38,208 nucleotides of DNA, from positions 64,001 to 102,208 of IMG/VR virus record IMGVR_UViG_3300048838_001248; one strand, written 5' to 3'. This document shows, piece by piece, positions 5,096 through 35,293 of the stretch. Each line of letters starts with the position of its first letter. Within the stretch, counting starts at the first letter, position 1. Under the pieces are notes generated by a model. That model did no database searches. It was not told where the DNA came from and saw nothing but the letters and a program-made list of their open reading frames with translations. The translations under genes were made by a program, and so were the position numbers. The DNA is from a virus (Duplodnaviria > Heunggongvirae > Uroviricota > Caudoviricetes).

Positions 5096-6086
5096 TATAT
5101 ATCTCCATGAAATAATCACGAATAACATCATAATTATTTTTAAGAATAAAATTATCGTAATCATCTCCCAGAGCATTCTTGAACTTGCCGATTGCAGCAC
5201 CCAATTCTTTACCCATAAGATTGGGAAGCCAAGACATTACAATATCACCATTAAATTTTTGCGATAATATTTTGTCCTGAGTATCTTTCATTTTCAATTC
5301 ATACAATTGACCCAGCAAATCTGATTCTGGAAAAAATTCGTCAATCATCGGCAAATATAAGTCCTTGTCTTTGTGATACTCATATCTCATATTGATATCA
5401 TTGTCTTTAAGATAATTCAAAAATATATGATATGAGCCACGTTTACGATTTCTTTTCTTGTCGATGCTTTTAAGGTTTTCCATTTTAAAGATTTCAGAAT
5501 CGAAATACTTGGTGTTTATGGTGAATTTGAATATGTCTTCCAGAGTTTCAAATCCCTGTAAATATCTATCATAGTCATATCCACCAAATTCAAATATTCT
5601 TTTAGCGTCTGTCGTCAACAAAATGTCGGCAGAGTTTCTTCCGTTGAAATTCCTGAACTTATAGAACAAGCCTTCCCAGCCATACGACAAACCAAATTTA
5701 TGGTATGTTTTACCCATTATATTACCAAGCGGGTCATATGAAAAATATACCAGCGCAGTTTCCCATTTCGATTCTGGGATTGGGATGAAATCAACTTGAA
5801 AGTTTTTATAATCAAAAGAATATACCCCACCATTAGCATAAACGGCTTCCGGTTGGAATGTTTTACGTATGTAGTCAACCCAATTTATGTTGGCATCAGT
5901 ATCAACCTTTATAAGTAAATCCAAATCACCGTGGTCTGCTTTAGTGTGATAGCACTTTATAACCGAACTGAAAAATGTCAAATCAAAGAAAACACGAACA
6001 TTGAGTTCATATCCTATTTGATTGAATTCTTCGGTGTTTTTTCTTTCAGTATAAACACCATATCTATTTAACGCTTTTCCTCCCAT
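5082..6086 (-). CDS. Pol-beta superfamily nucleotidyltransferase, possible CCA-adding-like
   Basis: GDLDLLI (DxD) and QVDFI third Asp; C-terminal FNGDIVM...GKELGAAI; start moved to MGGKAL. Confidence 0.7.
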   Translation of the reverse strand: MGGKALNRYGVYTERKNTEEFNQIGYELNVRVFFDLTFFSSVIKCYHTKADHGDLDLLIKVDTDANINWVDYIRKTFQPEAVYANGGVYSFDYKNFQVDFIPIPESKWETALVYFSYDPLGNIMGKTYHKFGLSYGWEGLFYKFRNFNGRNSADILLTTDAKRIFEFGGYDYDRYLQGFETLEDIFKFTINTKYFDSEIFKMENLKSIDKKRNRKRGSYHIFLNYLKDNDINMRYEYHKDKDLYLPMIDEFFPESDLLGQLYELKMKDTQDKILSQKFNGDIVMSWLPNLMGKELGAAIGKFKNALGDDYDNFILKNNYDVIRDYFMEIYNGKD

Positions 6087-12283: not shown

Positions 12284-12319
12284 TTATGGAGGTCTGATGT
12301 TTACCTATGTATCTTTCAT
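12284..12319 (-). CDS. Putative leader peptide MKDT(amber)VNIRPP
   Basis: ATG AAA GAT ACA TAG GTA AAC ATC AGA CCT CCA TAA TAG; starts 2 nt after the upstream stop. Confidence 0.6.
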
Positions 12320-12321
12320 AA

Positions 12322-12675
12322 TTATTCAAATTTAGATTTTAAATCGAGATAAAGATTATATTCCGCTTTTTTCTTTGCAGCTTCTTCTTCTTGTTTCCGG
12401 TCTTCAATGACCTTTTTACGTTCAGCCACCATGCGTTCAACTTCTTCTTCTCTTGGTTTAAATTGGTCTTGAATATCAACACCAATTTCTTTTTCGATAG
12501 ACTCAATACTTCTATCGTCAGCATCTTCCCATTTGGGAGATTTGTAGTCAGCATAAAGTTCATCAACCCATTGTTGAACTTCTTCCGGGGTTTCCACATC
12601 GTGCGTGCAGGTTTCTGTTCTTCTACAACATCCGCAACGATAACCATTACCTTGTTCATACGTAATTCTGTACAT
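12322..12675 (-). CDS. Hypothetical protein
   Basis: 117-aa ORF, CGCC motif, coiled-coil C-terminus. Confidence 0.8.
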   Translation of the reverse strand: MYRITYEQGNGYRCGCCRRTETCTHDVETPEEVQQWVDELYADYKSPKWEDADDRSIESIEKEIGVDIQDQFKPREEEVERMVAERKKVIEDRKQEEEAAKKKAEYNLYLDLKSKFE

Positions 12676-13009
12676 AGTCGTAATTTTTAAGTGCCAATTC
12701 TAATTTTTTTGTATGCATCTGCATTTCAGGAGTACCATAATAACAAATAGCAGTCATCTGGTTGTCGATGTCGGGTTCATAAAATGCCACAACATCAGCA
12801 CCATAGTACTGCAATCTATCATAAAGGTCTTTGAGTTTTTCCTCACCATCAATAGATAGTGATACGAGATATTGACTATCTCTCATCCAATCGTGGAATC
12901 GATTGGGAATTTTGTGTGCAAATTCTGCAATTGAATGACCTGTTTGTGCAATCTGTGCACCGGGTTTCAAGTCTGCCCTTACTACTGTTACTAATTTTAC
13001 CTACTTCAT
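12656..13009 (-). CDS. Pth2-like peptidyl-tRNA hydrolase with in-frame TAG at codon 3
   Basis: MK*VKLVTVVRADLKPGAQIAQTGHS and FYEPDIDNQMTAIC; the ORF-track TTG start omits the first beta-strand. Confidence 0.8.
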
Positions 13010-13068
13010 GATACTTGTTTTAATTGTTAATACTACTTGTTTTAGAACTATAAATACTTTTACATTTA

Positions 13069-13099
13069 CAAAGATACAAAAAAAATCTAATTTTGCAAA
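13069..13099 (-). promoter_or_regulatory. Bacteroidota primary-sigma promoter
   Basis: TTTG-N19-TATCTTTG upstream of the Pth2-like gene. Confidence 0.75.
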
Positions 13100-13362
13100 T
13101 TTTCTGCAACAAATTTTTCTGCATTGCTTCTTTTTCCAAAATATTTTAGTGTCCCACCGGGTTCATTCCACTTAGGATTGATGTACGGACCGGCTATTGT
13201 TCCTGCGGGATGCGTTTCCGGTACTTCATGTTTAAACCAACGCATAAAAAAATTACGAATGTCTTCACGAACTTTATGTTCGACCACATTTACGGTATAA
13301 TATTTATCACCTTTATAGATGTCAATACCGTCTTCAGTTGTAAACAATTTAACTTTTTCCAT
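13087..13362 (-). CDS. Hypothetical protein
   Basis: Start moved to MEKVKLFTTEDG; TAG stop. Confidence 0.7.
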   Translation of the reverse strand: MEKVKLFTTEDGIDIYKGDKYYTVNVVEHKVREDIRNFFMRWFKHEVPETHPAGTIAGPYINPKWNEPGGTLKYFGKRSNAEKFVAENLQN

Positions 13363-13501
13363 TTTCTTTGGATTTTTCAAATAATTCAATTTCTTCTCTG
13401 AATGGACATACCTGACAAATCTTAGCACCAACTTTTCTTTGTCTTTTACAGTTTTTGTAAAACCACGTCTCTTTTCCGTCTTTATAAAGTTTATCCTTCA
13501 T
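13349..13501 (-). CDS. Small Cys-containing protein (50 aa), not in ORF track
   Basis: MKDKLYKDGKETWFYKNCKR...ICQVCPFREEI. Confidence 0.65.
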   Translation of the reverse strand: MKDKLYKDGKETWFYKNCKRQRKVGAKICQVCPFREEIELFEKSKENGKS

Positions 13502-13514
13502 ATTATTTTATTTG

Positions 13515-13586
13515 AGGGCATAACGGGATTCGAACCCGTGGACATCGGTTTTAGAGACCGACTGGCGAACCAACCGTCATATGCCC
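13515..13586 (-). tRNA. Amber suppressor tRNA (anticodon CUA)
   Basis: Acceptor GGGCATA/TATGCCC; anticodon arm TCGGT-CTCTAAA-ACCGA; T-arm ACGGG-TTCGAAT-CCCGT; U73; weak D-arm. Confidence 0.85.
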
Positions 13587-13587
13587 G

Positions 13588-13857
13588 TTAATCATCTTCA
13601 AATTTAAATATTTTTTTTCTTATAATTGCATAATTTGTAAAACACAAGCACATTATTTTGAACTCTTTCCCTTCTTTTGCCACCTGATAAATATATTTCT
13701 CACCTTCTTTAATCACACGCTGCAGTTCATTCATATTAATTCCCCATTCCTCTCTTTCTTCTGGTGTACTATTCTGCATTATATAATCAAATCCATCACA
13801 ATTCCGGTCAAATTCCGAAACCGGATAGGTTCGTTTAAGTAGTTCAAAATCTTTCAT
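13588..13857 (-). CDS. Hypothetical protein
   Basis: 89-aa ORF. Confidence 0.75.
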   Translation of the reverse strand: MKDFELLKRTYPVSEFDRNCDGFDYIMQNSTPEEREEWGINMNELQRVIKEGEKYIYQVAKEGKEFKIMCLCFTNYAIIRKKIFKFEDD

Positions 13858-14178
13858 CTAATTTAAAAAGAATTTTGTTTCCCCAATCTTTTCTATTGCT
13901 GCTGGCATTTTGGTTAACCCACAATCAAGAATTAACTTAACGATTTCATCAAGCTGTTCACCTAACTGGTCTTGTAATTCTTTGGGGGTTTTATTTGGGT
14001 CAGAAACTCTGGCAAATATAACTTCATCAAACCTATCGGTTTTGACATAAATTTTGCTGCTCAAGACATGATTTTCTTTCTCATCTCTTTCCCTTTTAAT
14101 TGTTCCATGAAAGCATCTGCTCCAATCAGCTTTTGCCATGAACATTTCCGTTATCTCAACTTTCAATTTTTTCATCAC
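13858..14178 (-). CDS. Hypothetical protein
   Basis: 106-aa ORF; its TAG is directly followed in frame by the next ATG. Confidence 0.75.
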   Translation of the reverse strand: MMKKLKVEITEMFMAKADWSRCFHGTIKRERDEKENHVLSSKIYVKTDRFDEVIFARVSDPNKTPKELQDQLGEQLDEIVKLILDCGLTKMPAAIEKIGETKFFLN

Positions 14179-20354: not shown

Positions 20355-20381
20355 AATTATACTTTATTATAAATACGTTTG

Positions 20382-20455
20382 TACGCCCAGAGGGAGTCGA
20401 ACCCCCACTCTCCACGTTCGTAGCGTGGTGCATTATCCAGTTATGCTATGGGCGC
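20382..20455 (-). tRNA. tRNA-Arg(ACG)
   Basis: CCACG-CTACGAA-CGTGG. Confidence 0.95.
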
Positions 20456-20545
20456 ATATCTTACTTCCTATTGTTTTTAAATGAACTACCTACTATTTTT
20501 TACTAAATGCTTCATTTTCAACATTAGATGCTCCTATTATTTTAG

Positions 20546-20617
20546 TACCCTCGGCAGGAGTCGAACCCGCATTCTAAGTTTCGAAGACTTCCGTTCTGTC
20601 CATTGAACTACGAAGGC
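20546..20617 (-). tRNA. tRNA-Arg(UCG)
   Basis: AAGT-CTTCGAA-ACTT with a top G:A mismatch. Confidence 0.9.
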
Positions 20618-20638
20618 AGTTGTTTATAAATACTTTAG

Positions 20639-20710
20639 TACTCCCAACAGGAATCGAACCTGTATCTAAAGTTTAGGAAACTCCAATTCTATCCGTTGAA
20701 CTATGGGAGC
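20639..20710 (-). tRNA. tRNA-Arg(CCU)
   Basis: GGAGT-TTCCTAA-ACTTT. Confidence 0.9.
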
Positions 20711-20919
20711 AAATTAACATATTGATATTTTATACCCAAAGGGTCACCATTATTTTTCAAATATTCAGAAAATGAATCACGTTTATTCTCACTATAAACA
20801 ATCATAATACAATGACCATATTCGTCAATGAATGCATATCCGTTTAACGATATCCATTCTTTATTTTCATTCTGAAACTTCAGAACTTGATTCATCTTTT
20901 GAATCGTATGTTTCATCAA
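20701..20919 (-). CDS. Hypothetical protein, start uncertain
   Basis: Overlaps both the tRNA and the zinc-ribbon ORF. Confidence 0.4.
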   Translation of the reverse strand: MMKHTIQKMNQVLKFQNENKEWISLNGYAFIDEYGHCIMIVYSENKRDSFSEYLKNNGDPLGIKYQYVNLLP

Positions 20920-21025
20920 AAATTGGTATTCTTGTTATGTGAATAACTTCATTGCATTTGGGACAAATAATGAAATCACTACTTGTTGGAACGCAAATTA
21001 CTTCTTTACATTTTGGACAAATCAT
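20867..21025 (-). CDS. Small zinc-ribbon protein (52 aa), not in ORF track
   Basis: MICPKCKEVI...IICPKCNEVI with an acidic tail. Confidence 0.7.
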   Translation of the reverse strand: MICPKCKEVICVPTSSDFIICPKCNEVIHITRIPIFDETYDSKDESSSEVSE

Positions 21026-21042
21026 TACTTTATCGTTTTTAG

Positions 21043-21114
21043 TACCCCCACGTGGAATCGAACCACGAACCTAACTTTAGAAGAGTTATGTTATATCCAT
21101 TTAACTATAGGGGC
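21043..21114 (-). tRNA. tRNA-Arg(UCU)
   Basis: TAACT-CTTCTAA-AGTTA. Confidence 0.95.
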
Positions 21115-34458: not shown

Positions 34459-34493
34459 TATTTAGGTGATTATTTTTAAAAAATTTTAAATTG

Positions 34494-34578
34494 TGAGGGT
34501 AGAGGGATTCGAACCCCCTGAGTATCAAAGTATTGGATTTACAGTCCAACGCCACTCCACCATCGTAGCCGTACCCTC
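34494..34578 (-). tRNA. tRNA-Tyr(GUA)
   Basis: TTGGA-CTGTAAA-TCCAA, long variable arm. Confidence 0.95.
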
Positions 34579-34582
34579 ATTG

Positions 34583-34653
34583 TGCATCCGACAGGGTTCG
34601 AACCTGTGTCACCTGATTAAGAGTCAGGAGCATAACCACTTTGCTACGGATGC
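34583..34653 (-). tRNA. tRNA-Lys(CUU)
   Basis: CCTGA-CTCTTAA-TCAGG. Confidence 0.95.
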
Positions 34654-34717
34654 AAGTTCCTCCTGTCCCTTCGGCAACGGTTATGTTGGTGCACCAACGC
34701 CCCTTTTCAGGAAGATG

Positions 34718-34796
34718 TGGAAATGGTAGGACTCGAACCTACATGCCGAAGCGGGAGTTTTACAGACTCTTGGGTATTCCAGCACCCAACATTTCC
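34718..34796 (-). tRNA. tRNA-Tyr(GUA)
   Basis: GAGT-CTGTAAA-ACTC; variable arm GC-TTCG-GC. Confidence 0.9.
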
Positions 34797-34802
34797 AATT
34801 TG

Positions 34803-34866
34803 TGCCCAAGGCAGGGGTCGAACCTACGACACAATTCCAAGACGGTTTGTGTCTCCAAACAAGGAC
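34803..34866 (-). ncRNA. D-armless tRNA-like RNA
   Basis: T-arm GTAGG-TTCGACC-CCTGC; imperfect acceptor; 7-bp stem GACACAA/TTGTGTC with a 12-nt loop. Confidence 0.6.
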
Positions 34867-34869
34867 ATT

Positions 34870-34955
34870 TGGTGGGATTGGTGGGATTCGAACCCACTCA
34901 GCCGATGGCACTTGTTTTACAGACAAGCCTAACTCTCCAACGTTAGCGCACTCCC
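34870..34955 (-). tRNA. tRNA-Tyr(GUA)
   Basis: CTTGT-CTGTAAA-ACAAG; CCA encoded. Confidence 0.92.
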
Positions 34956-34962
34956 AAATTTG

Positions 34963-35044
34963 TGTATTCGGTGGGATTCGAACCCACGTTGTACTTTCGT
35001 ACCCTGATTAAAAGTCAGGAGCATAACCACTTTGCTACGAATAC
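34963..35044 (-). tRNA. tRNA-Lys(UUU) with long variable arm
   Basis: CCTGA-CTTTTAA-TCAGG; variable arm GTAC-GAAA-GTAC. Confidence 0.9.
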
Positions 35045-35097
35045 GTTTGGATATTTCAGTTATCTTGGATACAGAAAATTCCTAAACTCTACCTCAG

Positions 35098-35168
35098 TGC
35101 ACCCGGTAGGAATCGAACCTACGTCATCTGGTTAAAAGCCAGAGGCATATCCCCTTTGCTACGAGTAC
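35098..35168 (-). tRNA. tRNA-Lys(UUU)
   Basis: TCTGG-CTTTTAA-CCAGA. Confidence 0.95.
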
Positions 35169-35220
35169 ATGTCTACTTTTTTTGGGACATTGGACTAAAA
35201 AGTAGTAAAAACCCTAAAAG

Positions 35221-35293
35221 TGCGCCCGATGGGACTCGAACCCATAACTCCCACATTAAAAGTGTGGTACTCTACCAATTGAGTTACGAGCGC
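35221..35293 (-). tRNA. tRNA-Lys(UUU)
   Basis: CCACA-CTTTTAA-TGTGG. Confidence 0.95.

Follow-up and report, generated by a model that had tools for sequence, protein, structure and literature searches.

The 38,208-nt window analysed here, i.e. the whole stretch of DNA under study, is the final 38 kb of a single 102,208-bp phage contig (IMG/VR record IMGVR_UViG_3300048838_001248) with a guanine plus cytosine content of 34.6%. The phage encodes a ribonucleotide reductase, an RNA ligase and 29 tRNAs. On the minus strand of the window lies a small gene for a Pth2-like protein (Pth2, peptidyl-tRNA hydrolase 2), the reading frame of which is interrupted at codon 3 by an amber stop codon, hereafter referred to as the gate. 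A predicted tRNA gene with the anticodon CUA precedes the ATG of this gated gene by 505 nt on the same strand.

The gated gene and the neighbouring tRNA

The gated gene reads ATG AAG TAG GTA AAA TTA GTA ACA GTA GTA AGG GCA GAC TTG on the minus strand, exactly as quoted in a preliminary description of this DNA, which had been made from the sequence alone (Table 1). If TAG is read through, the gene comprises 117 codons, the frame remaining open up to the stop at positions 12656-12658, and there is no canonical start codon between the gate and the first beta-strand of the protein. Contigs of related strains from four public sequencing runs, belonging to three studies, carry the TAG intact at this site, one of them with an extra in-frame AAA codon ahead of it. 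One contig from an RNA library also spans the gate with TAG intact, DNA carry-over being possible in this case. No near-identical phage record was found by megablast of 4 kb against the phage collection.

Standard-code open reading frames (ORFs) give a good coverage of the 102-kb genome. Among the 185 ORF-genes of a simple codon-score gene set, 129 end in TAA (70%), 33 in TGA and 23 in TAG. The upstream in-frame stop is TAG in 20 genes, of which only the Pth2-like one has a conserved protein without an intervening start codon, and no other gene needing TAG readthrough was found in the whole 102,208-bp genome. The earlier statement that TAG ends other genes normally is therefore correct: the recoding is local and the genome is on the standard code. 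Genome-wide recoding (code 15) was rejected on the same counts.

The preliminary description had placed a CUA tRNA about 500 nt upstream of the gene, and both ARAGORN and Rfam locate it there. Its anticodon loop (C-U-CUA-A-A) has 7 nt, with U33 and a purine at position 37; it further shows G1-C72, U73 and a weak D arm. The nearest neighbours of this tRNA among 421 other tRNAs are of mixed isotypes and provide no consistent amino-acid identity, and the discriminator bases of the suppressors vary by lineage (U, A, G). Because discriminator bases differ and no consistent isotype neighbour emerges, the inserted amino acid probably varies between suppressors. It should be added that a tRNA-Trp-like anticodon arm is common to many of them. 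No terminator-like site was detected on the same strand between the tRNA and the gated gene. Two small ORFs lie between them in the window; these are absent in one related strain, where the two parts are much closer to each other.

Table 1. Positions of the gated gene and associated features in the window
Feature	Position	Strand	Basis or remarks
Predicted amber suppressor tRNA, anticodon CUA	13514..13586	-	ARAGORN; Rfam RF00005, 46.7 bits vs gathering score of 29
GTATTTATA box, candidate phage promoter element	13049..13057	-	~45 nt upstream of ATG; conserved in most of 21 aligned relatives
Two-codon leader (Met-Lys), ATG (13009-13007) AAG (13006-13004)	13004..13009	-	Precedes the gate; read from the sequence
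In-frame TAG gate, codon 3; base +4 is G (purine)	13001..13003	-	Sequence and relatives
Predicted Pth2-fold protein body, residues 4-117, with stop codon	12656..13000	-	Pfam PF01981, AlphaFold, Foldseek

The Pth2-like protein

The product had been described as a Pth2-type enzyme, an assignment with which the fold and the profile match agree. The Pfam PTH2 profile (PF01981) matched with 28.6 bits against a cut-off of 23 (E = 1.7e-6), over profile positions 1-79 of 115 only, and profile position 1 aligned at residue 4, directly after TAG. The family profile matched Pth2 chains from the PDB with E = 5.8e-10, the second residue of these chains aligning with residue 5 of the window protein. In the AlphaFold model, obtained with 11 relatives as input (predicted local distance difference test score, pLDDT, of 91.3), beta-strand 1 comprises residues 5-11 and residues 1-4, gate included, form a free unstructured tail. 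The best 13 Foldseek matches in the PDB were all archaeal Pth2, human Bit1 or structural-genomics homologues (including Ta0108, 1rlk), with template modelling (TM) scores of 0.65-0.74, and of about 0.73 to archaeal Pth2 and human Bit1.

The part of the assignment that did not stand is the catalytic lysine of the Pth2 GKGK loop, which we take to be Lys18 in the Sulfolobus enzyme. In profile alignments this column is occupied by Ala18 in the window protein and by Tyr, Leu or Ala in its relatives, and is not conserved in the phage family. Opposite the Asp of the Pth2 DAG motif the family has Glu78, an invariant residue within an E-P-D motif that is itself invariant; the position stays acidic, the motif is different. 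The phage family thus resembles archaeal and eukaryotic Pth2 (PF01981; PDB 2zv3, 1wn2, 1q7s, 1xty) in its fold (TM 0.70-0.74), N-terminal strand and AQxxH helix motif, but differs from them at both these sites and in being almost confined to phage contigs. By predicted fold and by profile the window protein belongs to the Pth2 superfamily, and we refer to it as Pth2-like; peptidyl-tRNA, N-acyl-aminoacyl-tRNA and other tRNA esters are all candidate substrates.

Conservation of the gate in relatives

A set of distinct relatives was compiled by scanning three family alignments against viral contigs, together with one metagenome scan. Among the 161 distinct family genes, 144 were TAG-gated, 4 TAA-gated and 12 ungated, with a single doubtful case of TGA. 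The conservation of the stop in homologues, a check proposed in the preliminary description, was hence borne out. The layout of gated genes (148/161) consists of ATG, 0-8 further codons and the stop, in frame and directly before the first beta-strand, and a canonical start after the stop is usually absent. All 79 close metagenome relatives that could be scored (56-73% identity) were gated, and in none of them was the stop replaced by a sense codon. The same arrangement was present at seven loci from IMG/VR with 39-73% identity, on contigs of up to 359 kb: an ATG is followed by a TAG in frame, one to five codons ahead of the conserved strand, and a tRNA-CUA is located within about 1.2 kb in each case.

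Searches of annotated phages with tblastn revealed the family in 206 cluster C mycobacteriophage records, in huge phages, in Lak phages and in two Tenacibaculum phages. The actinophages Myrna and Catera have GTG TAG GTG and ATG TAG GTG, respectively, and a tRNA-CUA 130-250 nt after the gene. These tRNAs (Myrna, 5463-5534; Catera, 5602-5675; our loci L013 and L014) are listed in GenBank as tRNA-Ser and tRNA-Arg, and ARAGORN assigns the anticodon CUA to both; the corresponding 'peptidyl tRNA hydrolase' genes are annotated from the GTG right after the ATG/GTG-TAG start-stop. Only 2 matches were obtained among 185,579 prokaryote genomes (one per species). One of them (L097) is the same 362,763-bp contig that is listed as viral in IMG/VR, and the other is a 5.9-kb contig of a metagenome-assembled genome.

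Linkage and covariation of stop codon and anticodon

Linkage was counted with ARAGORN and a structure-aware pattern search, on the same strand of the fetched DNA, for TAG-gated genes flanked by 1.5 kb or more in both directions. A CUA tRNA or tRNA-like gene was present near 90 of these 103 genes, and the same pattern on the opposite strand gave 0 matches, which substantiates the co-occurrence that the preliminary description had suggested to look for. ARAGORN alone recovered the same-strand tRNA-CUA at most loci. For two loci without it in the first 4-kb flank, searches of the whole contigs located a tRNA-CUA at distances of 4.6 kb (L045) and 46 kb (L041).

ARAGORN undercounts suppressors, and those with expanded D regions were found by a covariance model built from 32 suppressors and by the pattern search. 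A group of huge phages seemingly devoid of suppressors was in this way seen to have CUA tRNA-like genes with expanded D regions, 50-2400 nt upstream of the gated genes. Five such contigs (L072, L075, L079, L222 and L231) have D regions of 14-18 nt, missed by ARAGORN, and in one neighbour the anticodon loop is enlarged by an insert of 46 nt. Standard tRNA finders therefore give too low a number of suppressors.

Synteny over distant clades is limited to the tRNA and the Pth2-like gene. In a reverse search, 66 viral loci with a tRNA-CUA of one common anticodon arm were collected; 17 of them had a Pth2-like gene in the fetched DNA, TAG-gated in 13, and these 13 represented new lineages. Eleven loci, each flanked by 3 kb or more in both directions, lacked a Pth2-like gene, and in 38 the flank was too short; phage suppressors are therefore not always found beside such a gene.

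Among the TAA-gated genes only two had enough flanking DNA, L029 (ATG ACT TAA ATT) and L180 (ATG ACG TAA ATT), and both have an upstream tRNA-UUA and no tRNA-CUA. The association between stop and anticodon gives a Fisher p of about 1.4e-4, uncorrected for relatedness. The acceptor stem of the L029 tRNA is the same as that of the window suppressor, whereas the L180 tRNA comes from another suppressor lineage. As the tRNAs are of different lineages and the two proteins are 66% identical, this points to stop and anticodon having switched jointly at least twice, independently. Of all the sequence comparisons made here, this covariation is the strongest argument for the tRNA reading the gate. The family members of Lak-A2 (L015) and of L086, L087 and L089 have no N-terminal gate, yet possess an ochre-reading tRNA-UUA no more than about 0.6-0.8 kb away; in Lak-A2 the gene lacks a canonical start and comes after TAA TAA. 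No convincing TGA gate with a tRNA-UCA was seen in five viral scans.

Codon context, leader and initiation signals

The base following the gate stop (+4) is a purine in all 65 distinct contexts, as compared with 6 of the 23 TAG terminators of the genome (T 14, C 3, A 5, G 1; p = 1.6e-13). In older work on E. coli a purine at +4 favoured amber suppression, and the context of the gate is one that favours readthrough. The leader consists of ATG and 0-3 codons in 60 of the 65 contexts, Lys being the commonest last residue. Where a Shine-Dalgarno sequence is visible (L004, L005 and L010), its spacing fits the leader ATG and not the post-stop codon.

No stimulatory RNA structure was apparent at the gate: there were no consensus pairs in 21 relatives, and the window sequence had z = +1.0. 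Such a structure would not be required if a cognate suppressor is supplied. Back-up in-frame stops follow the TAG terminators at a median of 4 codons, against 6-7 for other stops, a difference too weak to use.

A separate mini-ORF, ATG AAA GAT ACA TAG GTA AAC ATC AGA CCT CCA TAA, is located after the gene following the Pth2-like gene (window 12284-12319, minus strand). Its beginning corresponds to the MKDT-TAG-GTA leader that gates the Pth2-like genes of some relatives, the first five codons being the same. This mini-ORF may represent a second leader of the amber-dependent kind, or else a fossil.

Proposed mechanism

Conservation, linkage and covariation in relatives support the proposal that TAG serves as a gate, one that is conserved and in all likelihood decoded by the suppressor tRNA next to it. 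We consider it likely that the tRNA and the gene constitute a two-part translational module within a tRNA island, dedicated to the suppressor-dependent translation of a single enzyme. The pattern suggests that this enzyme is made only when the tRNA-CUA overrides the stop. Ribosomes would initiate at ATG 13009, make Met-Lys and reach UAG at codon 3, where termination by the host RF1 would leave no enzyme. Once made and charged, the phage tRNA-CUA would decode UAG and give rise to the 117-aa protein with the predicted Pth2 fold, the output of which would track suppressor activity relative to RF1. We infer from these comparisons that readthrough at the gate occurs. The identity of the inserted residue is probably unimportant, because the model places residue 3 in the unstructured tail ahead of beta-strand 1.

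As for the purpose, we favour a hydrolase that would clear the tRNA-ester by-products rising with suppression, such as dropped-off and non-stop peptidyl-tRNAs, and that would be dosed in proportion to the suppressor. We hold this dose-matching with modest confidence; the data agree just as well with a simple timer or an AND gate. In a wider and more tentative sense, for which we would give somewhat less than even chances, the gated Pth2-like gene may be a conserved, perhaps the main, target of the 'orphan' suppressor tRNAs found in large phages on the standard code, cluster C mycobacteriophages and jumbo phages among them. The pair would then work as an autonomous sensor of how suppressor tRNA and RF1 are balanced, this balance setting the dose of a tRNA-ester hydrolase.

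Several points weigh against suppressor-dependent translation. Since 12 family members are ungated or fused, among them the ungated protein of Xanthomonas phage Xoo-sp13, which is joined to another domain, the enzyme does not need the gate. No CUA tRNA was found in the fetched DNA of 13 of the 103 gated genes (including L215/L041 and L240/L053); for L215/L041, the tRNA-CUA located 46 kb away is on the contig of the gene itself. Because the sequences share descent, there are fewer independent cases than our counts suggest. A cost is to be expected of a working suppressor, as it would read through 23 phage genes and many TAG-ending host genes, and the window tRNA has the weak D arm mentioned above. 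The post-stop codon is ATT, ATA, GTG or ATG in 39 of the 65 contexts, at which some initiation could take place independently of suppression. Moreover, the Shine-Dalgarno sequences of Myrna and Catera are placed more suitably for the GTG that immediately follows TAG, and in actinophages the gate may be leaky or bypassed.

Alternative explanations

The alternative that fares best, improbable as we judge it, is that Met-Lys-stop acts as a minigene, in which peptidyl-tRNA drop-off or slow termination would sense a shortage of Pth or RF1 and feed back on the hydrolase by analogy with prfB. The very short leader, with Lys as its commonest last residue, is reminiscent of drop-off-prone minigenes such as lambda bar, in which translating an ORF of two or three codons releases peptidyl-tRNA, with toxic effects if Pth is in short supply; the likeness is one of form only (ATG AAG TAG). 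Against it, the enzyme lacks the catalytic lysine of Pth2 and has a putative Pth activity, and an early stop is equally expected of a plain gate, in which the aborted product is cheap and the tail would accept any residue.

Expression independent of suppression is less probable still and would in our opinion be surprising. The mini-ORF would then be a short upstream ORF ending at TAG, and the enzyme would arise from re-initiation or direct initiation at the post-stop codon or the downstream TTG. The start-like post-stop codons counted above would allow this, as would Myrna and Catera, where the annotated GTG start after TAG has a suitable Shine-Dalgarno spacing. However, the post-stop codon of the window is GTA, which is not a start codon, and in 26 of the 65 contexts it is GTA, GTT, AAC, ACA or GAG, none of them a known start. 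The preliminary description had named a downstream start at GTA or TTG as one of the findings that would speak against its reading; a TTG start cannot yield the whole protein because beta-strand 1 would be removed, and this TTG is not kept in relatives. Re-initiation should in addition be indifferent to the type of stop, yet TAG gates 144 of 148 genes in spite of the prevalence of TAA among genome stops, and where the gate is TAA the neighbouring tRNA reads TAA.

It is very unlikely that the gene is just one recoded gene in a genome at least part of which uses TAG as a sense codon (as in code 15). A suppressor tRNA is encoded, as in recoded phages, and some relatives are perhaps recoded: the ORF coverage of Lak-A2 rises strongly with TAG readthrough, and L010 has a second internal TAG. 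The present genome, on the contrary, has good standard-code ORF coverage, terminates genes with TAG and contains no other TAG-split gene. Under recoding the codon should also drift to synonymous sense codons, and no close relative has a sense codon there.

Finally, a pseudogene, a sequencing error or a ribosome hop over TAG can hardly be credited: a lone in-frame stop is the usual mark of a pseudogene and AAG TAG GTA AAA in the window would let a Lys-tRNA hop from AAG to AAA, but the first two are refuted by the conservation of the stop in about 150 distinct genes under clear protein constraint and by its unchanged presence in independent runs of three studies, and hopping was dropped as matching take-off and landing codons are missing in most relatives (e.g. 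ACG TAG GTT AAA; TCG TAG ATT TAC).

Comparison with known systems

Stop-codon recoding with phage suppressor tRNAs has been documented in crAss-like, Lak and other phages, with TAG reassigned to Gln (code 15) or TGA to Trp (code 4) (bioRxiv 10.1101/2021.08.26.457843; PMC9523058). In common with our case, a stop-reading phage tRNA makes it possible to translate genes interrupted by in-frame stops in a host that uses the standard code, and the idea of expression timing is shared. The present genome differs in keeping its TAG terminators and in confining the effect to one small gene with one stop, fixed just after the start and beside the tRNA. The word 'hydrolase' is absent from the recoding preprint (bioRxiv 10.1101/2021.08.26.457843), and a full-text literature search returned nothing linking a phage suppressor tRNA to a stop-gated Pth2-like gene.

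The early in-frame UGA of prfB (RF2) is comparable in that an early stop in a translation-factor gene makes synthesis depend on termination efficiency. Unlike the present gene, which keeps its frame and would have its stop read by a dedicated tRNA, prfB relies on frameshifting by +1 and encodes a factor acting on the stop itself. Q-beta A1 and the gag-pol of murine leukaemia virus (MuLV) also have a conserved stop, in a favourable 3' context, that is read through to a longer product; they use host near-cognate tRNAs with low efficiency and extend a functional protein, whereas here the pre-stop product is a dipeptide, the virus would supply a cognate suppressor and no stimulatory RNA structure was found.

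Standard-code jumbo phages with tRNA-CUA genes are exemplified by Xanthomonas phage XacN1, which has two of them; reading through annotated stops gave no target and their role was left open (PMC5852040). Some of the relatives found here are contigs of 267-359 kb with two tandem tRNA-CUA genes beside the gated gene. Synthetic feed-forward gates with suppressor tRNAs (PMC7969014) combine an amber codon in the target with a co-regulated suppressor tRNA for tight, AND-type control. Those circuits were engineered, and the module proposed here would be a natural and widely conserved counterpart.

If our interpretation is true, the Pth2-like gene would be the first conserved target for the suppressor tRNAs of many standard-code phages, and the pair a natural single-gene amber switch, or genetic AND gate, comparable to the synthetic circuits. 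It would also be a plausible intermediate, possibly the first step, towards full stop-codon recoding in phages. Gene callers truncate gated genes, start them after the stop or translate TAG as Gln, which affects their annotation. Cultured test systems exist in the form of cluster C mycobacteriophages on Mycobacterium smegmatis.

Neighbouring genes and features

The ORFs neighbouring the gated gene are conserved within the close clade only; they had no Pfam matches and one marginal PHROG match (phrog_11079, E = 2.6e-4). A third conserved component of the module was rejected on the grounds of this narrow conservation. The GTATTTATA box upstream of the gene (Table 1) and the GTATTTAT motif, with 25 occurrences in the genome against about 14 expected and 22 of the 25 on the minus strand, represent a candidate promoter element for this phage group.

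Directly upstream of the tRNA-CUA there are two small ORFs of 106 aa and 89 aa (window 13588-14178, minus strand), which are in frame and joined as AAT TAG ATG, so that suppression of the junction TAG (13858-13860) would produce a 196-aa fusion. Pfam and PHROG gave no match for either. Of 31 distinct cases in relatives, 25 have the two ORFs immediately next to each other in the same frame, and 22 of these 25 use TAG as the junction stop, as against 12% of the genome stops. The junction may therefore be a second conserved readthrough site.

It should also be added that the tRNA island (window 34493-35293 and 20381-21114, minus strand) contains several copies of Lys (4), Tyr (3) and Arg (4) tRNAs, some of them with long variable arms. 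Host anticodon nucleases are known to target such isotypes.

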